A DNA stretch of 64,000 bases from Verrucomicrobiia bacterium (GTDB lineage Bacteria > Verrucomicrobiota > Verrucomicrobiia > Limisphaerales > JADLHS01): positions 40,280-104,279 of the forward strand of contig WYBW01000049.1 of NCBI GenBank assembly GCA_011525685.1. The letters are read 5' to 3'. This document shows, in pieces, positions 488 to 39,845 of the stretch (position 1 is its first letter; each line of letters starts with the position of its first letter). The position numbers and the translations under genes are program-made. Below the pieces are notes generated by a model. It saw only the letters and a list, made by a program, of their open reading frames with translations. It had not been told where the DNA came from and made no database searches.

Positions 488-618
488 AGATACCAAATCA
501 CTCTTACCACCCAAAGGCGCTGGGCGCGCCGACTTTCGCTACAGCGGTTGCTGCGTCGCGATCCTGCCTGAGTTCCTGCCCGACTCCCCGCGCGCCCAGC
601 GCCTCTTCTTTTGCCGGT

Positions 619-722
619 GGAGCGCGGGCTTTAGCCCGCTTCAACGTCCGTAAGGCGAGAGACAATAGTCTTTCATATCTGCTGGCGTTTTGGGAGTTGA
701 AGCGGCGTGAACGCCGCGCCCC
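619..722. repeat. Palindromic repeat element, family G (GGAGCGCGGGCTTyAGCCCGCTTCAAC arms)
   Basis: The left arm at 619-645 is a roughly 75% reverse complement of the right arm at 696-722. A second copy lies at 28994-29104 and shares the internal GACAAT..CTTTCA core. Confidence 0.6.
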
Positions 723-1818
723 GCTCGCACTCGCGGTGGTCGCCGCGCTTACTGCGGCGCTGGCGTTCACCGGCTGCGAGAAGCCCGAGGCCAAAGCCCC
801 CGAGAAAAGTCTGGTGCGCACCGCGGTCGTCGAGCCGGCGGGCAATGGCCGTTCCGACAGCGAGGCGGCCTATCTCGCGGCGGTGAAGTTCGACCGCGAA
901 ACGGATCTCAATTTCAAGGTCGGCGGGATCGTGGTCCTCATTGGACCGGCCGCCAACGCGGATTGGGACGAGGCGACGCCGGTCAAGATCGGGGCGCTGC
1001 TGGCCGAGTTGAAGCAATCGGATTTTGAGAACGCGTTGAGCGCGGCGCGTGCGAAGGCGGACCTGGCCGACAAGACGCGCGAGCGTTTCCGGAAACTCCG
1101 CGAGACGGACGCCATTTCGCAGCAAGAACTCGATGTCGTCGAGGCCGAGTGGCGCACAGCGCAGGCGGCGCTGGATCAGGCGCAGCACAATCTGCGCGAC
1201 TCGCGATTGGTGGCGGACAAGAACGGCGTGATCCTGAGGCGCTACATCAACCGCGGCGTCACGGTTGCACCCGGCCAGCCGGTGCTGCGCTTCGCCGACA
1301 CGAGTCTGATGTCCGTCGAGTTGGGCCTGCCGGATCGGTTGATTGGCAAGGTGACGCCCGGCCAGGAGATTGATGTCGAGATTTCGGCGTTGGAGGGCCT
1401 GAAGCCTTTCAAGGGCACTGTTACGGAAGTCGGCGTGGCGGCGAGTGCTGAAGGCCGATTGTTCCGCGTCGTAATCAAAGTGCCGAATCCGGAAGGGCAG
1501 TTGCGTTCGGGCATGACCGCGCGCATTCGCGTCGGCGACGCGGCCGCGACGCCGGGCACAGTCACCATTCCGCTCTCGGCGCTGGTGACGCTGGTGTCCG
1601 AAGGCGGCTCGCATGGCAACCCGCAAACGCAACTCGGCGTCTTCGTCGTCCAGGACGGCAAAGTGGTGAAGCGCGCGGTGAAGACCGGCGACATCATCAA
1701 GAGTTCCATTCTCGTGACCGAAGGATTGCGGGCGGGGGAACAGGTCGTCACATCGGGAGCCAGTTTTCTTTACGACGGCGCGCCGGTCGAAGTCGCCCCC
1801 GAACTGACCACCAAGTAA
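697..1818 (+). CDS. RND efflux periplasmic adaptor (membrane fusion protein), predicted lipoprotein
   Basis: It has HlyD/MFP-like coiled-coil and beta-barrel segments (QQELDVVEAEWRTAQAALDQAQ, GQPVLRFADTSLMSVELGLPD). From the TTG at 697 the N-terminus reads KRRERRAPLALAVVAALTAALAFTGC, a signal peptide plus lipobox. The start is uncertain: an in-frame ATG at 484 is possible, and the track ORF start at 250 overlaps the trx gene. Confidence 0.8.
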   Translation: MKRRERRAPLALAVVAALTAALAFTGCEKPEAKAPEKSLVRTAVVEPAGNGRSDSEAAYLAAVKFDRETDLNFKVGGIVVLIGPAANADWDEATPVKIGALLAELKQSDFENALSAARAKADLADKTRERFRKLRETDAISQQELDVVEAEWRTAQAALDQAQHNLRDSRLVADKNGVILRRYINRGVTVAPGQPVLRFADTSLMSVELGLPDRLIGKVTPGQEIDVEISALEGLKPFKGTVTEVGVAASAEGRLFRVVIKVPNPEGQLRSGMTARIRVGDAAATPGTVTIPLSALVTLVSEGGSHGNPQTQLGVFVVQDGKVVKRAVKTGDIIKSSILVTEGLRAGEQVVTSGASFLYDGAPVEVAPELTTK

Positions 1819-1846
1819 CGCAGGATAATCCAGGAGAACCATTCCC

Positions 1847-4800
1847 ATGTCAGACCACGTTGAGAAAAAGACCGAGTCCGGTGTGGATGCGACGCCGAGC
1901 ACTTCAACCGTAGCGCAGACCTCCGAGTCTGCTGTATCGCAGGTTTCAAAACCTGCGGGCGCAACGAAGGGAGAAGCCCCCGAAAAATCTCAGCGCGATG
2001 CCGATTTGGAAATCGGCGATACAGCAGGTTTGGAAACCTGCGCTACGAAAAAGCCCGCAGCTCACGTTGAAAACAAGAAGGAGTCCGGTGGCATCGCTCA
2101 GTTCTTTGTCGAGCATCGGGAGGTGAGCTGGCTGGCGCTGATCGCCGTGCTGGTGTGGGGCGTGGTGGCCTACACCAAGCTGGGCCAGCAGGAAGACCCC
2201 ACGATTCCCCAGCGCACCGCGATGCTGGTGACGATCTTCCCCGGCGCGACCGCCTCGAAGGTCGAGGAACTGGTCGCGAAGCCGCTCGAACGCAAGATCA
2301 GCGAGCTGGATTCCATCGAGGAGATCAAGACGACGGTCCGGCCCGGCGTCGTCACGATGAACATCAAACAGCTTCCCGCGCCGAAGCCGACGATCGACCA
2401 GCAGTGGGACAAGGTCCGGTCCAAGATCGCCGAAGTGCAGTTGCCCGACGGCACGCGGCAGCCGTGGCTCAACACGGATTTTGGCAACACGATCACGCTG
2501 CTATATGCGCTGGTCAGCCCGCCAATCACCGAGGCGGAGTGCGTGGCGCGGGCCAACCTGCTGCGGGACCGCCTGGCCGACCTCCGCGCCGGAGCGCCTT
2601 CCACCCATCGCGCCGCCGTGGCGGCCTGGCTGCCCGGCATGGACGCGAAAGCCCTCGAGACGCTCCGCGGCCGGTTCGAGGTGGCAATCCAGGCGGCCGG
2701 TCTCGCCAAAGCCGTGCGCACTACTCAGGGTCACTCGTTCATCCTGGCCGACCTGGAAACCACCGCCAGCCGCGGCGATCTGGAGAAGTTCATCGCCGAG
2801 TTCACCCGAACGTTCACGGGCACCGATCGTGAACTGTATCATCCCGATTTCACCCAGCCGATCGTGTTGATGGGCGATGAAGACCCGTTGCCGCAAATCC
2901 GCGCCACGGCCCCGCCGCGTTACAGCTATCGCACGCTCGAGTTGCTGGCGCGCGATTTCGAGGACGAACTCAAGCAGGTCGAGAGCGTCGGCAAAGTCAC
3001 CAAGGTCGCCATCGTGGAGGAAGCGGTGTATCTGCTTTACTCGGACGCCGACCTGGCCGGCTACGGCCTGACGCCGGAAGGCGTGATGTTCTCGATCAAC
3101 GCGCGCAACGCGGTGATTCCCGGCGGCACAATGCGCACCGAAGGCCGCAATTTCCCCGTGCAGCTTTCCGGCGAATACAAGACCGAGAACGACATGCTCG
3201 GGACGGTGGTGGGCATGGGACGCGGCGGCGCGCCGGTGTATCTGCGCGATGTCTTCGAAGTCCGCCGGATGTATGAGTCGCCCATTTCCTACAAGGTGGA
3301 TGTGCTCGGACGCGACAATGTAGCGCAGGTTTCCAAACCTGCTGTGTCGCCGACTTCCAAGTCGGCAGCGCGTGGGAAGATCGAGCGGTCAGCGGATTTG
3401 GAAATCCGCGATACAGCAGACTTGGAAGTCCGCGCTACGACGGAAAGCTCGCCGCTCGACACGCGCCGCGCCGTCATGGTCGCCGTCGAGATGCGCGAGG
3501 GAAAGATCATCCGCCATTTCAACGAGGACGTGACGAGGTTGGTGGACCGGATGAAGGCGCGCACCCCCGAGGGCATCGAGTTTCGGGTGTTGTCCGACCA
3601 ACCCTCGGCCGTGGATCATCGCATCAAGCACTTCATGAAGTGCTTCATGGAGGCGGTGATCATCGTGATCGTCGTCGCGCTGTTCATGATGGATTGGCGC
3701 TCGGCGCTGGTGCTGGCCACCGCGATTCCCGTGGGCGTCGCCATGACGTTCGTGGGCATGCAGGTGCTGGGCATTCCCCTGCAACAAATCTCCATCGCCG
3801 CGCTCATCATCGCGCTGGGTCTGCTGGTGGACGTGCCGGTGGTCGCCTCCGATGGCATCAACCGCGAGCTGTATCGGAAGGAGCCGCGGTTGCGCGCGGC
3901 CTGGCTGGGGCCGCTGCGTCTGCGGCATCCCATGGTGTTCGGCACCCTGACCTGCGTCTTCTCGTTCCTGCCGCTGCTGATGCTCTACGGCGACAAGGGC
4001 GAGTTCATGAAGAGCATGCCGACGGTGGTGACCATGGCGCTGCTCTCGGCGTTGCTGGTGTCCAACACCTTCCTGCCGCTCATCAGCTACTACGTGCTGC
4101 GCGGGCAGAAAGGGTTCGATGAAGGCGGCGAGGTGCGTTCGTTCTTCCTGTTCGGGCTGGTGGATCGGGCGCTCCTGGCGCTGTTGCCGATCTACCAAAA
4201 GGCCCTGCGGGGCGCGCTCAAGCGACCGTATCTCGTTCTGGGCGTCGCCTACGCGGTGCTGGCGCTGGTCCTCGTCTTTGTGTTCCCGCGATTGGGCAGC
4301 CAGTTCTTCCCGCCGGCCGAGCGCAATCAACTGCTGGTGGACATCGAAACGCCTTCGAGCGATTCGCTGACCAGCACGCGCGCGGCGATGGATCAAGTGG
4401 TAACCATTATCAAGCAGCACGAGGAAGTGGCCAGCGCGGCGGTGTTCTCCGGCGGCACGGCCCCGCGTTTCTATTACAACGTCGAACCCAAGGCACCGGC
4501 CAATTACCTCGGGCAAATTCTCATCAACACGCGCCACGCGGACGAGGTGGACGGCCTGATCGTCAAACTGCGCAAGGAACTGGACTCTTCCGTGCCCGGA
4601 GTGCGCTGCGTCGTCAAGCCGCTCGAGCAAGGTCCGCCCATCAACGAACCGATCCAAATCCGCCTCAGCGGCGAGAACCTGGACAAGCTGCGCCTCCTCG
4701 CCGATCAGGTTGCGACCGAACTGCGCGCGGCGGGCGGCTATCACGTGCATGACGACCTCGGCCTGCGCATGCCCAGTCTCCAGATTGACATTGATCAGGA

Positions 4801-5707
4801 CCGCGCGAATTCACTCGGCTTGAACAACCGGCAGATTGGCGGCGTGGCCCTCTCCTCCTTTGCCGGTTTGCAGGTGACGGAACTGCGCGAAAAGGACCGG
4901 CTCATCCCCGTGTTGGTGCGCGGTCGCATCGAAGACCGCAGCGAGGTGGAGAAGATTCGCGCGCTCTACGCGCCGACGCCCGACGGGAAGAGCGTTCCCT
5001 TCGAGAGCTTCGCCAAGGTGACCGTGCAGCCCGAGTTCGTCCGGATTCCGCACTACAACCAACTTCGCACCGTCACCGTCAAGGCCTACGCGCCGTTCGG
5101 CGAACTGGCGTCGCAGGTGCTCGACCGCGCGCGCCCGGGCCTGGCGAAGATCAAACTCGAACCGGGTTACGAATTGAAGTTCGCCGGCGAGGACGAGGAA
5201 CTGCGCAAGAGCAAGGCGGAGATGATGGTCATCCTGATGGTCTGCCTGGCGCTGATCGTTGGCACGCTGGTGCTGCAATTCAAGTCGGTCGTCAAGGCGG
5301 CGACAGTCATGCTGACAGCGCCGCTGGTGCTCATCGCCTCGATCATCGGCCTCTTTGTCACCAACTCACCCTTCGGGTTCATGGCCATGCTGGCGGTGAT
5401 CAGCCTGATTGGCGTGCTCGTGTGCAACATGATCGTGCTCAGCGAACAGATCGAGCACTCGCGCGAACAGGGGCTGCCGTTGGAGGAGGCGCTGGTGAAG
5501 TCCGGCCTGTCCCGGTTGCGCCCGGTGCTGATGACGGTCCTGGCCGTGTCCGGCGGCCTGGTGCCGCTGTTCTTTGCCGGCGGCGCGCTGTGGCATCCGC
5601 TGACGGCGGTTCACATCTTCGGCCTGCTCTTCGCCCCGGTGCTGACGTTGGGGATGTTGCCGACGATGTACTATGTCTTCTGCGCCAAACTGAAGTTAAT
5701 CAAGTAA
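1847..5707 (+). CDS. RND efflux permease (AcrB/HAE-type inner-membrane pump), 1286 aa, carrying two in-frame repeat insertions
   Basis: Length, twelve hydrophobic segments in a 1+5 / 1+5 arrangement, and AcrB-like periplasmic domains. AGGAGA lies 8 nt upstream of the ATG. The gene sits between adaptor and outer-membrane factor genes. Confidence 0.95.
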   Translation: MSDHVEKKTESGVDATPSTSTVAQTSESAVSQVSKPAGATKGEAPEKSQRDADLEIGDTAGLETCATKKPAAHVENKKESGGIAQFFVEHREVSWLALIAVLVWGVVAYTKLGQQEDPTIPQRTAMLVTIFPGATASKVEELVAKPLERKISELDSIEEIKTTVRPGVVTMNIKQLPAPKPTIDQQWDKVRSKIAEVQLPDGTRQPWLNTDFGNTITLLYALVSPPITEAECVARANLLRDRLADLRAGAPSTHRAAVAAWLPGMDAKALETLRGRFEVAIQAAGLAKAVRTTQGHSFILADLETTASRGDLEKFIAEFTRTFTGTDRELYHPDFTQPIVLMGDEDPLPQIRATAPPRYSYRTLELLARDFEDELKQVESVGKVTKVAIVEEAVYLLYSDADLAGYGLTPEGVMFSINARNAVIPGGTMRTEGRNFPVQLSGEYKTENDMLGTVVGMGRGGAPVYLRDVFEVRRMYESPISYKVDVLGRDNVAQVSKPAVSPTSKSAARGKIERSADLEIRDTADLEVRATTESSPLDTRRAVMVAVEMREGKIIRHFNEDVTRLVDRMKARTPEGIEFRVLSDQPSAVDHRIKHFMKCFMEAVIIVIVVALFMMDWRSALVLATAIPVGVAMTFVGMQVLGIPLQQISIAALIIALGLLVDVPVVASDGINRELYRKEPRLRAAWLGPLRLRHPMVFGTLTCVFSFLPLLMLYGDKGEFMKSMPTVVTMALLSALLVSNTFLPLISYYVLRGQKGFDEGGEVRSFFLFGLVDRALLALLPIYQKALRGALKRPYLVLGVAYAVLALVLVFVFPRLGSQFFPPAERNQLLVDIETPSSDSLTSTRAAMDQVVTIIKQHEEVASAAVFSGGTAPRFYYNVEPKAPANYLGQILINTRHADEVDGLIVKLRKELDSSVPGVRCVVKPLEQGPPINEPIQIRLSGENLDKLRLLADQVATELRAAGGYHVHDDLGLRMPSLQIDIDQDRANSLGLNNRQIGGVALSSFAGLQVTELREKDRLIPVLVRGRIEDRSEVEKIRALYAPTPDGKSVPFESFAKVTVQPEFVRIPHYNQLRTVTVKAYAPFGELASQVLDRARPGLAKIKLEPGYELKFAGEDEELRKSKAEMMVILMVCLALIVGTLVLQFKSVVKAATVMLTAPLVLIASIIGLFVTNSPFGFMAMLAVISLIGVLVCNMIVLSEQIEHSREQGLPLEEALVKSGLSRLRPVLMTVLAVSGGLVPLFFAGGALWHPLTAVHIFGLLFAPVLTLGMLPTMYYVFCAKLKLIK
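1910..2046. repeat. Palindromic repeat element, family A (GTAGCGCAG...CTGCGCTAC termini, GGTTTGGAAACCTG-type hairpins)
   Basis: Terminal inverted repeats GTAGCGCAG / CTGCGCTAC and internal hairpins (GCCGATTTGGAAATCGGC, CAGGTTTGGAAACCTG). It lies inside the RND ORF and is translated as ..VAQTSESAVSQVSKPAG..ADLEIGDTAGLETCAT.. Confidence 0.7.
3320..3438. repeat. Palindromic repeat element, family A, second copy inside the RND pump gene
   Basis: GTAGCGCAGGTTTCCAAACCTGCTG ... CAGCAGACTTGGAAGTCCGCGCTAC. It is translated in frame as NVAQVSKPAVSPTSKSAARGKIERSADLEIRDTADLEVRAT. Confidence 0.7.
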
Positions 5708-7554: not shown

Positions 7555-7800
7555 GTCCGTTCAACTTTTTAACCCAACCACCCTCCGGGGCCTAATCTCT
7601 GCAAGACAATTCAAAACAGGCTCTTACGGCATTTCAACCTCGTTGGCATGGCCACTGCAAAATGCCTGCTGATAGAAGCGAATAGTAGTTGATGACATGA
7701 ACACGAGCCAAAACAACTCAAGCATCCGATTCGTCGGCCAAGCCGATTTCGCGTCGGAAACCCTGCAAGTCGGACAAACCAGTTCTGGCGGTGTTCACGG
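7555..7800 (+). other. Duplicated copy of the window-start module (upstream box, sigma-54 promoter, leader hairpin, 5' end of the thioredoxin ORF)
   Basis: It aligns by eye to 1-245. GTCCGTTCAACTTwTTAACCC matches at 20/21 positions. TGGCATGGCCACTGCAAAATGCCTGCTGA is identical over 29/29 nt. The flanking and coding parts are about 70% identical. Homology ends just before the Trx active site. Confidence 0.8.
7644..7659 (+). promoter_or_regulatory. Candidate sigma-54 (-24/-12) promoter, second copy
   Basis: The 16-mer TGGCATGGCCACTGCA is identical to 90-105 and has the same spacing to the ATG at 7697. Confidence 0.6.
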
Positions 7801-8422
7801 CGAGCTACCCCCTATGACCATGAAACACACTATGACAACCACGCCTCAAACTCTAACCATTGACATCCTCACGGAAGACGGATCGCGCACGCGGTTCGTG
7901 CAGCCGGACGAGGCCAGCGCGAAAAGAACGTTGCGCCAGTTGGTGTCACCGCGGCTCTTTACTCCGCCCCTGCTTACGTTGGCTTCCGAGCACAGCACGA
8001 GCGCCATTCCCACCCGGACCATTGATGTCATCCTGGCCCACACGGCATCGCCGCCTCCGTTGCCGTTGCCCAGCGGGTGGGTGGATGCGGTTGAAGTCAC
8101 CGACGAGGCGTTGACGCCGCTTGAGACCCTGCGTGCGGCCGCCGCGGCGGAAGGCAGGCATGTGATGCTGGCGGAAGTTCATACACTGGGAGATTGGATG
8201 ATCCGCTTGAAGCTGGAAACCATCCTTCCGGCGACGATCCAGGAAGAGCGCCATCTTTGGAACCATTTTTTGGATTTACCTGCGATTCCGTTTCGTTTGC
8301 AGGCGGGCGGCCTGGGCGCCATCAATCCCGCGAATATCGTGCGCGCGACCGTTTGTCCGCCGGTTGACGGAGCCGCGGAGGCGGCGCTGTCGGCGGATTT
8401 GCTGGAAAGCCTTCGGCCCTGA
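7697..8422 (+). CDS. Uncharacterised protein A, paralog of the 10935-11615 product, with a chimeric 5' end derived from the thioredoxin gene
   Basis: The ORF is intact. Residues 1-33 (MNTSQNNSSIRFVGQADFASETLQVGQ) parallel the Trx N-terminus. An extra base near 7780 then shifts the frame relative to trx. The conserved paralog region starts near MTMKHTMTT (alternative starts at 7814, 7820 and 7832). Confidence 0.6.
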   Translation: MNTSQNNSSIRFVGQADFASETLQVGQTSSGGVHGELPPMTMKHTMTTTPQTLTIDILTEDGSRTRFVQPDEASAKRTLRQLVSPRLFTPPLLTLASEHSTSAIPTRTIDVILAHTASPPPLPLPSGWVDAVEVTDEALTPLETLRAAAAAEGRHVMLAEVHTLGDWMIRLKLETILPATIQEERHLWNHFLDLPAIPFRLQAGGLGAINPANIVRATVCPPVDGAAEAALSADLLESLRP

Positions 8423-9630: not shown

Positions 9631-10047
9631 ATGTCATACTCCATAAATCCAGTTGGCGAAGACCGGTGCGTCTTCCTGTCCTACGAAGGCGAGGTGCCGG
9701 CCGTGGAGTTGTCCGCCGCCCGTTACGAGGCGGACGCCCTCTTGGACCAACGGCAATGGCACCGCCTCATCGTGGACGTCACGCAGTTGCAGTCAATGCC
9801 CCGGACGGCAGAACTGATTGACTTTGCCGGCGGGTTATCCGCGACCGTCTCCCGGGCCAGGCGGGTGGGACTGGTGGTCCGCCCCGAGCAGGACCGTCTG
9901 GCCCGGCTCATTCAAAAGGTCGCCCGCCGCGGGCGGTTGTTCCTCACCTCCTTTCTGGACCCGGCCAAGGCGATCCGTTGGGTGAAGCAATCCACACCCG
10001 CCAGGCAAAATTTGGGGAGCATCCGGAAGGAGCAACTGGCATCATGA
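9631..10047 (+). CDS. STAS/SpoIIAA-like domain protein
   Basis: The pattern is CVFLSYEGEVPAVEL...WHRLIVDVTQLQSMP...RVGLVVRPEQ...FLD. AAAGGA lies upstream of the ATG. The family assignment rests on pattern only. Confidence 0.6.
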   Translation: MSYSINPVGEDRCVFLSYEGEVPAVELSAARYEADALLDQRQWHRLIVDVTQLQSMPRTAELIDFAGGLSATVSRARRVGLVVRPEQDRLARLIQKVARRGRLFLTSFLDPAKAIRWVKQSTPARQNLGSIRKEQLAS

Positions 10048-10507
10048 CGCAGCTCACCCAAGCCTTGTCGCGGGGCAGCCAGACCCTCCTGCCCGTGACC
10101 CGATGGGAATGTGTCCGATTTGCGCCCGCAATCCAAGGGACGCGAGTCCAGTCCCCTTTTGTTTCGCCGATCTGCTTCCGGCCTCGCTCGGAAGCGCACG
10201 TCACCGAACGCGAGGTTGTATTCGGACGACGCGTCCCGTCGTTTCACCGGATCGGACGATTTCGCGCGGGTTCATGCTTCCGCGCGATCGTAAAAACACC
10301 CGCAAACTCATGACGAAATGAAAATTCGCGAGAGAAACCCATGCGGCACCGCCAAGCCAGCGACCCGCGTCCGACCGTTCCGGGCACGCGGCGAGAATTG
10401 TATCCGCCGCCTGATCGAAGCCGCCAGCGCCGCGCGGGCGGGGGCCGCTCAGATGACCTTGGGTGACTGGCGTGACCTGGAGATGGAAGTGCAACGGAGA
10501 CTCCAAC

Positions 10508-10954
10508 ATGAAATCAAAAAATCTCCAAGCTGATCCCAGGGCCTACGCACAATCCTTGAACAGGGTCCCCGTGTGCCGGCGGCGCATGGCAAACACGGAC
10601 GGGTTTCCCCCCGTGGATGTGTCCGATACGGGCGAAGAGTACTTGTTCGAGTTCGACTTGCCGGGCCTGAAGCTGGATGACCTCCAGATCAGTCGCGATG
10701 ACGCGACGCTGTATCTCGAGGGCGAGCGCCCGACCCGGCGGTGCGGCGGACAAAGTCTGCGATCCGAGCGCCCGGCCGGGGTCTTCGCGCGCCGACTGCC
10801 CCAGCCGGCGGATGCTTGCGCCGACGAGATTCACGCGATCCTGCAAGACGGAGTTTTGGAACTGCACGTTCCCCGGAGGCTGCCGCCGGATGAAAACGGC
10901 AGGTCAAACATCATCCCATTCAAGGAGACACATTATGAACACACCCACAGTTGA
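10508..10954 (+). CDS. Hsp20/alpha-crystallin small heat-shock protein
   Basis: Alpha-crystallin domain: PPVDVSDTGEEYLFEFDLPGLKLDDLQISRDDATLYLEGER...RSERPAGVFARRLPQPAD...AILQDGVLELHVPR. GGAGA lies 8 nt upstream of the ATG at 10508. An alternative start is at 10586. Confidence 0.85.
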   Translation: MKSKNLQADPRAYAQSLNRVPVCRRRMANTDGFPPVDVSDTGEEYLFEFDLPGLKLDDLQISRDDATLYLEGERPTRRCGGQSLRSERPAGVFARRLPQPADACADEIHAILQDGVLELHVPRRLPPDENGRSNIIPFKETHYEHTHS

Positions 10955-28993: not shown

Positions 28994-29104
28994 CATGGAG
29001 CGCGGGCTTCAGCCCGCTTCAACTTCGCAAATGGAAGGACACGGAACGATGACAATCTCACCTTTCACTCGCGCGGCGAAGCGGCATGAACGCCGCGCTC
29101 CATG
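28994..29104. repeat. Palindromic repeat element, family G, second copy
   Basis: CATGGAGCGCGGGCTTCAGCCCGCTTCAAC ... GAAGCGGCATGAACGCCGCGCTCCATG. It fills the gap between the L7Ae-like and DEAD-box genes. Confidence 0.65.
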
Positions 29105-35610: not shown

Positions 35611-35708
35611 GCCGGCAAACGTAGCAGGGGCGTCGTGGAGGCAAAAACCGATTTTGCGCGGCCGCCTCGCCGCCCGGTCTAAGTTTTTGCCACCCGGCGG
35701 ATCTCGCT

Positions 35709-39632: not shown

Positions 39633-39711
39633 GCATCAATGGTTGTGGTCTGTGTGTCACGGCGATTTGAGCGGTTAAAAGCGTCATGGGGCGCTTCTTC
39701 ACCGAAACACC

Positions 39712-39845
39712 GTAGCGCAGGATTCCATCCTGCTGGATCGCGGGTTTCCAACCGGCGAACCGTTGCCAGCGGCGGCGTTTGCGTGCGTTGGGTCGGTCTG
39801 CCGAGTGGAATTCGGCGATACGGCAGGTTGGGATGACTGCGCTAC
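39712..39845. repeat. Palindromic repeat element, family A, intergenic copy
   Basis: GTAGCGCAGGATTCCATCCTGCTG ... GCCGAGTGGAATTCGGCGATACGGCAGGTTGGGATGACTGCGCTAC. Confidence 0.65.

Follow-up and report, generated by a model that had tools for sequence, protein, structure and literature searches.

How an efflux-pump gene came to carry a palindromic mobile element between its start codon and its first transmembrane segment, and whether that element is translated, are the questions raised by the 5' end of an RND permease gene in the 64,000-nt stretch of verrucomicrobial DNA analysed here (the window). The gene is the third in a thioredoxin-MFP-RND-OMF cluster, with an HlyD_D23 domain encoded upstream and OEP downstream. 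It belongs to the AcrB/HAE type of RND permeases, given its full-length match to ACR_tran and its place in an operon that also encodes a membrane-fusion protein and an outer-membrane factor. Its closest solved relative is 6vej_A, in which residue 83 of the query pairs with chain residue 8, and MexK is another solved relative. The host of the pump gene is a soil verrucomicrobium.

The answer that we consider most probable is an in-frame, REPIN-containing insertion of 207 bp in the codons of the cytoplasmic N-terminal tail, which brought with it a two-part filler and a 28-bp copy of the target, and which probably had an irregular origin. The features on which this reading is built are collected in Table 1.

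Table 1. Features of the permease gene, its N-terminal insert and the family-A copies of the window
Feature	Position	Strand	Remarks
Shine-Dalgarno AGGAG (1832-1836) and ATG (1847-1849) of the RND permease gene	1832..1849	+	context CCAGGAGAACCATTCCCATG conserved in L041, L042 and L039
RND (AcrB-type) efflux permease gene, 1286 codons	1847..5707	+	Pfam ACR_tran, 3e-151
DR1, upstream copy of the duplicated 28-bp target (codons HVEKKTESG)	1856..1883	+	lower identity extends to 1851; fast-evolving
Non-family inserted 26 bp, encoding VDATPSTST	1884..1909	+	family similarity begins at GTAGCGC; matches only the window and L041
Left REPIN arm, family A: GTAGC-hairpin-TGTATC-hairpin; two REP units, heads outward	1910..1956	+
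REPIN spacer, copy-specific	1957..1999	+	sequence and length differ between copies
Right REPIN arm, family A: hairpin-GATACA-hairpin-GCTAC	2000..2046	+
Non-family inserted 16 bp, encoding KKPAA	2047..2062	+	matches only the window and L041
DR2, downstream target copy (HVENKKESG), functional membrane-proximal tail	2063..2090	+	identical to the single copy in L042
Invariant RND N-terminal motif GGIAQFFVEHRE, before TM1	2087..2122	+	invariant alignment columns; aligns from residue 8 of 6vej_A
Second family-A REPIN, in frame in the permease gene at the periplasmic-domain hotspot, same VAQ..AT frame	3319..3440	+	no flanking duplication
Third family-A REPIN, intergenic	39711..39845	.	no flanking duplication

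The insert, its empty allele and its translation

A sequence-only reading of the window had described imperfect 28-bp direct repeats, matching at 24 of 28 positions and spaced 207 nt apart, with a palindromic element of a repeat family (family A) between them. The repeats were recovered exactly, both in coordinates and in sequence, as CACGTTGAGAAAAAGACCGAGTCCGGTG (DR1) and CACGTTGAAAACAAGAAGGAGTCCGGTG (DR2). A repeat search stretches the pair to 33 nt (1851-1883 and 2058-2090; identity 27/33), and none of 300 shuffles gave a flanking-repeat score as high as the 18 observed. The 179-bp interior is composed of the 137-bp palindromic element and 42 bp of non-family DNA, and the insert as a whole amounts to 207 bp, or 69 codons, in frame and stop-free both in the window and in the orthologous locus L041. 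The element itself is likewise borne out, with arms of 47 nt each (48 nt and 77% complementary in the repeat search), a predicted RNA fold of -72.1 kcal/mol (z = -7.3), and ends that coincide with those of the family at 3319-3440, at 39711-39845 and in hundreds of metagenomic ORFs. Within ~817 kb of related sequence, the window pair is the only long direct repeat of target-duplication type around a palindromic element, and a search of this related sequence returned no donor for the 26-bp segment, the spacer or the 16-bp segment. A longer duplication, extending upstream as far as the start codon or downstream into the non-family 26 bp, was rejected on inspection, similarity there being at chance level, and a paralogue as the source of DR1 was set aside since the window holds no second RND gene.

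The orthologous loci, 101 in number, are dominated by a plain 11-residue tail (MSNHVENKKES-GGIAQFF), found in 81 as called and in ~90 if loci called from an upstream in-frame ATG, or with tails of slightly different length, are included. The exact empty site is provided by L042, a near-identical allele with a single 28-bp copy, ATGTCAAAC[CACGTTGAAAACAAGAAGGAGTCCGGTG]GCATC, in which the 28 bp and the sequence that follows are identical to the second repeat copy of the window and its downstream sequence. Orthologues without the element show a single HVE(K/N)K..ESG segment, where two would have refuted the sequence-only reading. Because L042 and the element-free orthologues are single-copy, the insert can be defined as a 207-bp, 69-codon addition that includes the 28-bp target duplication; its length is a multiple of three, it is absent from ~90 of the 101 loci, and the frame remains open. 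L041, an independent assembly from a different sequencing run, has this insert too, in frame and joined to the gene at identical points. Judged from the empty L042 and the filled, independent L041, the presence or absence of the insert is therefore a real polymorphism that is inherited.

Some empty alleles carry an MSD-HVEKK tail, which was considered as a possible excision scar and rejected. Between L039 and L043, 46 positions differ over ~325 nt (-160 to +165) and a single one in the next 3 kb, so that this tail forms part of a recombined haplotype block. A search for a clean breakpoint of recombination at the insert found none, the three closest alleles being mosaics.

In-frame ATG, GTG or TTG codons are found only at 1847, 1883, 2006, 2030 and 2123, and a codon scan located no in-frame start between 2030 and the invariant motif. 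The earlier claim that no usable start lies downstream of the insert holds, since position 2123 is already beyond GGIAQFF. The invariant motif, which is preceded by only 7 residues in the solved relative 6vej_A, needs to be translated, and the start of the permease must therefore lie upstream of it. Translation of the insert as a cytoplasmic extension of ~69 residues is strongly implied, because the ribosome-binding site and ATG are the same as those of the empty alleles and no usable start follows, and because two diverged carriers have both preserved the frame, with purifying selection acting on the remainder of the gene. The peptides predicted from the insert include SDHVEKKTESGVDATPSTSTVAQ, and inspection of the translation reveals no hydrophobic segment. 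AlphaFold, run on a shallow alignment, renders residues 1-82 as coil with a pLDDT of ~30 and places the first helices at residues 83-89 and 95-112; the ~69 added residues are hydrophilic and, on this model, probably disordered.

Comparison of the two carriers, the window and L041, gives a dN/dS of 0.04 for the permease gene, indicative of strong purifying selection, and a dN of 0.11 for codons 1-12 versus a gene average of 0.0077. The 28 nt of DR1 hold 4 differences, all nonsynonymous (3 nonsynonymous and no synonymous changes in the dN/dS tally), and DR2 holds two synonymous and no nonsynonymous differences; between these carriers, DR1 is drifting and DR2 remains conserved. The 179-bp interior differs at 4/179 positions and the arms at 0/94. 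An insert younger than its flanks was suggested by the comparison of 4/179 with 20/200 (p = 0.002), an effect that comes entirely from the conserved arms, and was rejected; the non-arm interior DNA, at 4/85, does not differ significantly from the flanks (p = 0.17). In the most probable reading, the original ribosome-binding site and ATG are still used, with ~69 residues added ahead of the native tail; DR2 has taken over as the native membrane-proximal tail, and DR1 holds the native initiation region and is otherwise free to drift.

Among the 101 orthologous loci, one and the same codon boundary of the N-tail has received five or more different inserts, and the internal permease site has received at least four element types, several of them in more than one length variant. 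On the evidence of these alleles, the N-tail and one periplasmic loop are two permissive sites that have been repeatedly colonised by unrelated palindromic elements, and the insertion would persist because it lies in one of them. Identical sites are also occupied by different elements elsewhere, namely in the MoCoBD linker and in the MoCoBD/Fer2 spacer. The locus offers a clean example of selfish DNA shaping the termini and loops of a protein, with the pump under strong purifying selection throughout.

The REPIN family and the flanks of its other copies

By its sequence features, the element is a member of a REPIN family, in which GTAG-tagged hairpins are arranged as an inverted doublet around a variable spacer. 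The family-A ends are GTAGCGCAG...CTGCGCTAC, the arms being conserved and the spacer variable, and a consensus drawn from more than 40 copies reads VAQTSKSAVSRVSKPA-[variable]-ADLEIGDTAGLETCAT, an inverted doublet. The tags are evident in the left arm as GTAGC-GCAGAC..GTCTGC followed by TGTATC-GCAGGTTT..AAACCTGC, and the right arm mirrors them as ..GATACA.. and ..GCTAC; the same tagged hairpin units are found in L123-L126. A family-A peptide is found in 1,152 representative proteins, most of them shorter than 200 aa and domain-free, which are mostly short spurious ORFs. The copies are dispersed and predominantly extragenic, with 3-4 in the 64-kb window and seven in 20 kb of the related contig L124. 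It is L124 that supplies the cognate transposase: its Y1 transposase gene (1045-1767, minus strand) reaches 92.6 bits (cutoff 80) against the NCBIfam model NF047646 for the REP-associated tyrosine transposase (RAYT), and is bracketed by family-A elements at 911-1049 and 1818-1937. This association is found in the related contig only, the 64-kb window having no RAYT gene; no Rfam family matches anywhere in the window. GTAG-tagged REPs are reportedly mobilised by RAYTs (Nunvar 2010).

The sequence-only reading had asked whether other family-A copies are flanked by duplications, and the reply is divided: two copies of L124, at 10033 and 10715, are possible shorter cases, and flanking repeats above shuffle level are absent at 9/13 of the other independent copies. 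Flank tests of 15 copies gave no repeat in 9 and repeats of ~7, 18 and 28 nt in others, a length that is not constant. Marginal short repeats are present at the L125 and L126 copies, that of L126 being 13-14 nt long and 45-51 nt from the element. The copy at 10033 has a significant 18-nt flanking repeat with 20 + 18 nt of filler, which is not attributable to family A, and its standing as a clean second duplication is weakened by L127, which has part of the 'extra' DNA together with a different element there. The copy at 10715, counted among the nine repeat-negative ones, shows a weak ~11-nt duplication, with 24 + ~17 nt of filler, in the alignment with the empty allele L127 alone; the direct left/right test of its flanks was not significant. 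At the internal permease copy no more than 6 nt of extra DNA separate the element from its target, and comparison with the available empty alleles shows no duplication. Over the copies compared, family A is not regularly accompanied by a long duplication, and at no other copy is one of similar length clearly linked to the insertion.

Origin of the duplicated target

The sequence-only reading had allowed for an unusually long target duplication, for slippage or for recombination. Our best guess for the source of the duplication is a one-off capture by repair or template switching. A staggered break would have taken up a fragment bearing the REPIN, by capture or by copying, or the template would have been switched during replication or repair; such a single irregular event is suggested because the duplication is long and non-family DNA was inserted along with the element. 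A clean integration of the transposase type is less likely, and the window copy, with its 28-bp duplication and 42 bp of filler, does not have the duplication-free footprint of IS200/IS605-like elements, a departure that bears on the event and not on what the element is. The window (28 nt, with 26 + 16 nt of filler) nevertheless shares its layout with the events at L124 10033 and 10715, and if the latter duplications are real, a regular mechanism would be indicated rather than a one-off accident. The proposal that REPIN entry in these Verrucomicrobia may leave a duplication of variable length (~11-28 nt), with filler of ~20-26 nt to the left of the element and of 15-18 nt to its right, is a doubtful one. 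If true, it would describe the first natural footprint of REPIN entry into new sites, and the duplicated gene start or end would explain how REPINs land at gene boundaries without killing genes.

The duplication could instead predate the present REPIN, because sites are reused by different elements. An earlier 27-bp tandem duplication, or an older element, would have supplied the repeat and the 42 bp, and the REPIN would later have landed there or replaced what it found. Identical sites do hold different elements, in the internal loop of the RND permease, the MoCoBD linker and the MoCoBD/Fer2 spacer, and at the last of these part of the 'extra' DNA of the L124 REPIN is common to L127, which has another element; a 27-bp duplication and a subsequent 180-bp insertion would, moreover, both be in frame. 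No allele with the duplication and without the REPIN was found among the 101 loci, however, and the 22-aa insert allele (L047 type) at the same site, examined as a possible forerunner or descendant lacking the REPIN, matches neither the tail nor the extra segments of the window significantly. We regard this order of events as unlikely.

Very unlikely is an unequal homologous recombination between alleles with family-A REPINs placed 28 bp apart, whereby a crossover within the REPIN would duplicate the intervening segment. Many independent insertions have hit this hotspot, the population recombines heavily, as the block pattern of L039 versus L043 attests, and DR1 resembles the MSD-HVEKK haplotype (L038, L039), with DR2 equal to the MSN-HVENKK haplotype (L042). 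This haplotype pattern fits equally well, however, with conversion tracts from empty alleles that halt at the heterologous insert, or with parallel change at hypervariable tail codons, and neither of the parental single-insertion alleles is present among the 101 loci.

Formally, a target present once in the empty allele and twice in the filled allele has the architecture of a true target-site duplication, in which a family-A integrase would cut the strands ~28 nt apart and the gaps would be filled in, and the two L124 copies, with possible duplications of 11-18 nt and a similar spacing of filler, may be of the same kind. Such an integrase is highly improbable here, given that most other copies lack a flanking repeat, that the lengths recorded vary (~7, 11, 18 and 28 nt), that the internal copy with its empty alleles shows none, and that 42 bp of non-family DNA separates the repeat from the element. 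To our knowledge, RAYT and IS200/IS605-type transposition makes no target duplication. A chimeric join of two strain alleles through the repeat during assembly, conceivable in a window that probably derives from a metagenome-assembled or draft genome and in repeat copies that resemble two natural haplotypes, is scarcely credible, for the insert and its junctions recur in the independent assembly L041 with 4/179 interior differences, in frame and stop-free in both, and the exact sequence shared at the join, GAGTCCGGTG, is only 10 nt, shorter than expected assembler k-mers.

Relation to known elements

Classical bacterial MITEs (Correia, ERIC, RUP) generate a short target duplication of fixed length at every copy. 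Family A shares with them a short, non-autonomous nature, terminal inverted repeats and an occasional intragenic location, and differs in that its copies generally have no such duplication and that of the window is 28 bp long. The Rickettsia palindromic elements, reportedly described by Ogata et al. in 2000, are also in-frame palindromic inserts that add a peptide segment to a protein. Their peptide is conserved over its full length and they belong to another phylum, whereas the spacer of family A varies, its copies are mostly intergenic and a RAYT is associated with it. Rickettsia palindromic elements are ~100-150 bp long and are found in frame in unrelated genes at fold-compatible sites (PMC10969869).

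Intragenic GTAG REP dimers have been described in bacteria that include the verrucomicrobium Opitutus terrae, where they lie in frame within ordinary genes and add tens of extra residues, sometimes twice per gene and sometimes at the N-terminus, with the reservation that many N-terminal cases may be annotation errors; the word 'duplication' is absent from that text (Di Nocera et al. 2013; PMC3733652). The window has the same in-frame GTAG REP dimers in a verrucomicrobial gene, yet in this case the invariant motif rules out a start further downstream, and the locus is available in exact empty and filled forms. In-frame REP insertion is thus already known, including in the Verrucomicrobia, and it is the long target copy that is unusual. 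For annotation, the locus is a warning that long, low-complexity N-terminal extensions of verrucomicrobial proteins can be genuine.

With the REPIN/RAYT system, family A has in common the GTAG-preceded hairpins (inner units GTAT/GTGT), the tail-to-tail inverted doublet, the variable spacer and the RAYT of L124. It is distinguished by arms of two REP units each, which give an element of four hairpins, and by a window copy in which 28 bp of the target are duplicated and 42 bp of unrelated DNA are present, features not described in the REPIN literature consulted. The REPIN papers describe an IS200/IS605-like route and do not mention target duplication, and the spread of REPINs has been called 'a central, but unresolved issue', no insertion event having been confirmed in population sequencing (Bertels and Rainey 2011; PMC3116915). 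The window and L042, a filled/empty pair with base-exact junctions, accordingly provide rare direct evidence of a new REPIN insertion, and the long target duplication with its co-inserted foreign DNA falls outside the prediction of the standard RAYT model.

Elsewhere in the window, a 213-nt repeat at 7555-7767 represents a duplication of the thioredoxin gene's promoter and 5' end.

An in-frame insert in an RND pump gene

The 1286-codon ORF at 1847-5707 encodes an AcrB-type RND permease (Pfam), with thioredoxin and membrane-fusion-protein genes upstream and an outer-membrane-factor gene downstream, and bears within its first codons both copies of a duplicated 28-bp target, the upstream DR1 and the downstream DR2 (Table). 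The sequence-only reading had described a 207-bp insertion bounded by imperfect repeats around a palindrome, and the window agrees in each particular: the copies are identical at 24/28 positions with a spacing of exactly 207 nt, and the imperfect palindrome between them, at 1910-2046, folds with -72.1 kcal/mol (z = -7.3). A repeat search of the window extends the pair to 33 nt (27/33 identical); its flank-versus-flank score of 18 was equalled in 0/300 shuffles, and across ~817 kb of related DNA no other long direct repeat flanks a palindromic element as a target duplication. The remaining 26 bp (1884-1909) and 16 bp (2047-2062) of the insert lie outside family A, the repeat family of the palindrome, and had no other match in the sequences searched. 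Further into the protein, residues ~225-371 (window ~2520-2960) include ~130 residues in excess of solved RND structures, placed within the first periplasmic loop between blocks that do align and found likewise in the orthologues.

The nearest database proteins measure 1210-1217 aa (1217 being 1286 - 69) and all start MS[DN]HVE[NK]K.ESGGIAQFF, unbroken. Among 101 orthologous loci, window included, the plain 11-residue tail is present in 81 as called and in ~90 if in-frame ATG calls placed further upstream and tails of slightly different length are counted as well. An exact empty site is preserved at the related locus L042 (DNA ~96% identical), which reads ATGTCAAAC[CACGTTGAAAACAAGAAGGAGTCCGGTG]GCATC and is identical to DR2 and the downstream DNA of the window to 2162; the 69 codons are thus absent both from the nearest proteins and from this allele, the question that the proposed alignment with orthologous pumps was to answer. 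The pump protein of the window clusters with a 1279-aa protein of another sequencing run, encoded on contig L041, where the 207-bp insert recurs in frame with shared junctions and 4 differences across its 179-bp interior, which makes an assembly artefact very unlikely. Of these two alleles the empty one, L042, is overall the nearer to the window, and the insert is a presence/absence polymorphism of a recombining population. Both the initial observation and its interpretation hold.

The Shine-Dalgarno sequence and ATG of the pump gene are unchanged relative to empty alleles. In-frame start codons occur at 1847, 1883, 2006, 2030 and 2123, the last lying downstream of GGIAQFFVEHRE, a motif invariant across the RND alignments made here that aligns from residue 8 onward of the solved pump 6vej_A, so that a functional pump must start inside or upstream of the insert; the earlier claim that no in-frame start follows the insert is upheld in this sense, 2123, beyond the motif, being the sole downstream candidate. 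Over codons 83-1286, comparison of the window with L041 gives dS = 0.195 and dN = 0.0077 (dN/dS = 0.04), a constraint pointing clearly to a functional pump gene in carriers. The insert peptide abounds in A, T, S, E, K and P, is devoid of a hydrophobic stretch, and is modelled by AlphaFold2 from a shallow alignment as coil (pLDDT ~30). As the N-terminus of RND pumps is cytoplasmic, following the topology of AcrB, the product most likely bears a disordered cytoplasmic extension of ~69 residues.

Repeats of the pump gene, family-A copies of the window, and elements at the two pump insertion sites; repeat sequences are read from the window, and L and P numbers denote related loci and proteins
Feature	Site	Position or carriers	Sequence
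DR1	pump gene	1856-1883	CACGTTGAGAAAAAGACCGAGTCCGGTG
DR2	pump gene	2063-2090	CACGTTGAAAACAAGAAGGAGTCCGGTG
Family A	pump N-terminal tail boundary	window, L041	
66-bp palindrome (~22 residues)	pump N-terminal tail, same codon boundary	L001, L047, L097, L098, L102; also P0122, P0129	APSPAAAHDEPVRKTERSGAQA
L083/L107-type insert	pump N-terminal tail boundary		
Family-B-like element	pump N-terminal tail boundary	L095	
Double element	pump N-terminal tail boundary	L117	
Family A, in frame	internal pump site (periplasmic-domain loop)	window 3319-3440; L038 2542-2665	
Family B	internal pump site	L039, L041, L042, others	ERGVHAAS..KRPEGRAPE
Further elements	internal pump site	L040, L100	
Family A	intergenic	window 39711-39845	
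Family A, degenerate		window, near 35700	

Family A and its putative transposase

In aligned family-A copies the arms, VAQTSKSAVSRVSKPA ... ADLEIGDTAGLETCAT, are conserved and the spacer between them differs in sequence and length, with similarity bounded exactly by GTAGCGCAG ... CTGCGCTAC. Each arm comprises two hairpin units with tags GTAG and GTAT/GTGT and heads outward. In its GTAG tags, head orientation and variable spacer, family A matches published GTAG-tagged REPs, whose tail-to-tail dimers form the variable-spacer type (PMC3733652). No Rfam family matching the element was found. The related locus L124 holds seven family-A copies in 20 kb, two of which (region 911-1937) enclose a Y1 transposase gene (1045-1767, minus strand) whose product passes the NCBI equivalog model for REP-associated tyrosine transposases (RAYTs; NF047646) at 92.6 bits against a cutoff of 80, and family A is therefore a REPIN family, of inverted REP doublets, having a cognate RAYT. 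Such an enclosed gene represents the 'REPtron' arrangement. RAYTs are usually single-copy, so the absence of one from the 64-kb window says little.

With the insert peptide as query, ~150 proteins of 38-109 aa were retrieved, nearly all unnamed or 'hypothetical'; these are spurious calls on intergenic family-A copies. An exhaustive profile search placed the motif in 1,152 representative proteins, mainly short, though a few are genuine (a PKS KR-DH fragment, a LuxE-like protein and an NHL protein). Two L124 copies (3408-3544 and 4811-4930) stand on either side of a peptidase M20 gene. The 12 nt outside each are the exact reverse complement of one another (TCGCGTCGAAGC / GCTTCGACGCGA), which carries the inverted repeat past the REPIN cores.

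Recurrent use of insertion sites

The '..ES'/'GGIAQFF' boundary of the N-terminal tail has received at least five different inserts, counting family A and the elements of other lineages. The 66-bp palindrome of five diverged loci has no significant similarity to the tail or to the window insert, and a long flanking repeat is absent from the inserts at this boundary other than family A. The internal site (YKVDVLGR...LDTRR) is empty in 25/38 loci, and in L041 and L042, the closest relatives of the window, it is occupied by an element unrelated to family A. Family B is a second REPIN-like family in the window (617-720 and 28994-29104), with arms GGAGCGCGGGCTTyAGCCCGCTTC / GAAGCGGCrTGAACGCCGCGCTCC and a variable spacer of ~57 nt. 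L124 and the related locus L127 also carry different elements at shared sites, namely a molybdopterin dehydrogenase linker and the spacer before the next gene: family A (L124 8871-9007) lies in frame in an 811-aa dehydrogenase, in the stretch that separates its two molybdopterin-binding domains, and at that codon position L127 carries another GTAG-tagged palindrome (..SQSLLTSAAT).

In-frame palindromic insertions are well known from the RPEs of Rickettsia (PMC10969869), and published cases of in-frame GTAG REP dimers, N-terminal ones and double insertions per gene among them, are most numerous in the verrucomicrobium Opitutus terrae (PMC3733652), whose intragenic REPs the pump insertions resemble in being in frame, N-terminal and twice in one gene. 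What is new here are base-exact empty and filled alleles for an N-terminal insertion, indications of its coding status, the tie of family A to a RAYT, the recurrent reuse of sites by unrelated elements, and a target duplication of unusual length together with co-inserted DNA, beyond what current REPIN models explain.

Origin of the 28-bp duplication

Between the two carriers, DR1 codons differ by 3 nonsynonymous and 0 synonymous changes (dN = 0.11, ~14x the gene average) and DR2 codons by 0 and 2, so that DR2 evolves like the native tail and DR1 like sequence close to neutral; the interior gives dN/dS ~1.4 on few counts, with 0/94 arm positions changed. DR1 with its preceding GAC codon is similar to the tail, MSD-HVEKK, seen in two empty alleles, L038 and L039, and DR2 matches the MSN-HVENKK type exactly. 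Between L039 and L043, 46 differences fall within -160 to +165 relative to the pump ATG and 1 over the next 3 kb; the divergent block runs from the end of the MFP gene through the spacer and into the pump gene as far as its nucleotide 165, with a sharp recombination boundary. Tail type is thus part of a recombined haplotype block, which rules out MSD-type tails as excision scars. Most simply, empty alleles would supply conversion tracts that replace either flank as far as the heterologous insert, in which case the present difference between DR1 and DR2 is little informative on how the duplication arose.

RAYT-type elements presumably move as IS200/IS605 elements do, leaving no duplication. Examination of family-A copies for flanking duplications, a check proposed at the outset, found no flanking repeat at 9 of 13 other independent copies, and the internal copy of the window, which can be compared with empty alleles, is separated from its target by <=6 nt of extra DNA; a footprint of regular transposase action is thus an unlikely source. 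The 42 bp of non-family DNA inside the insert suggest that the copied or captured fragment extended beyond the REPIN. Where the sequence-only reading had offered a long target duplication, slippage or recombination, a single irregular event is favoured, with recombination and long-stagger integration kept as rivals. A REPIN-bearing fragment would have been captured at a staggered break or, in an alternative form, template switching would have re-primed 28 nt upstream; the insertion would survive because the initiation region and the membrane-proximal tail were both left intact.

Two L124 copies offer a hint of greater regularity. The copy at 10033-10171 is flanked by an 18-nt repeat that takes in an RBS and ATG, at distances of 20 nt (before) and 18 nt (after; 0/300 shuffles), evidence weakened by L127, which has part of this extra DNA but a different element there. 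Against the empty L127 site, the copy at 10715-10834 comprises 24 nt of filler, the REPIN and ~17 nt of filler, followed by a diverged ~11-nt second copy and the old gene end, and its direct flank test was not significant. A regular 'duplication plus filler' footprint is judged unlikely. That the duplication is older than the REPIN seems quite improbable, and unequal recombination between alleles whose REPINs lay 28 bp apart is very doubtful. Genuine long-stagger integration is given the least credence of these three rivals.

At the related locus L125, the family-A copy at 10111-10240 has CACAGCC directly on either side, possibly a 7-nt target duplication, and also lies between two copies of TCGCGCGACA. 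Elsewhere in the window, 1-213 and 7555-7767 form a 77%-identical duplication of the thioredoxin gene promoter and 5' end, and the ORF after the second copy (7697-8422) had no Pfam match. The best-conserved block, TGGCATGGCCACTGCAA, resembles a sigma-54 -24/-12 promoter, and the pump cluster may thus be sigma-54 dependent.
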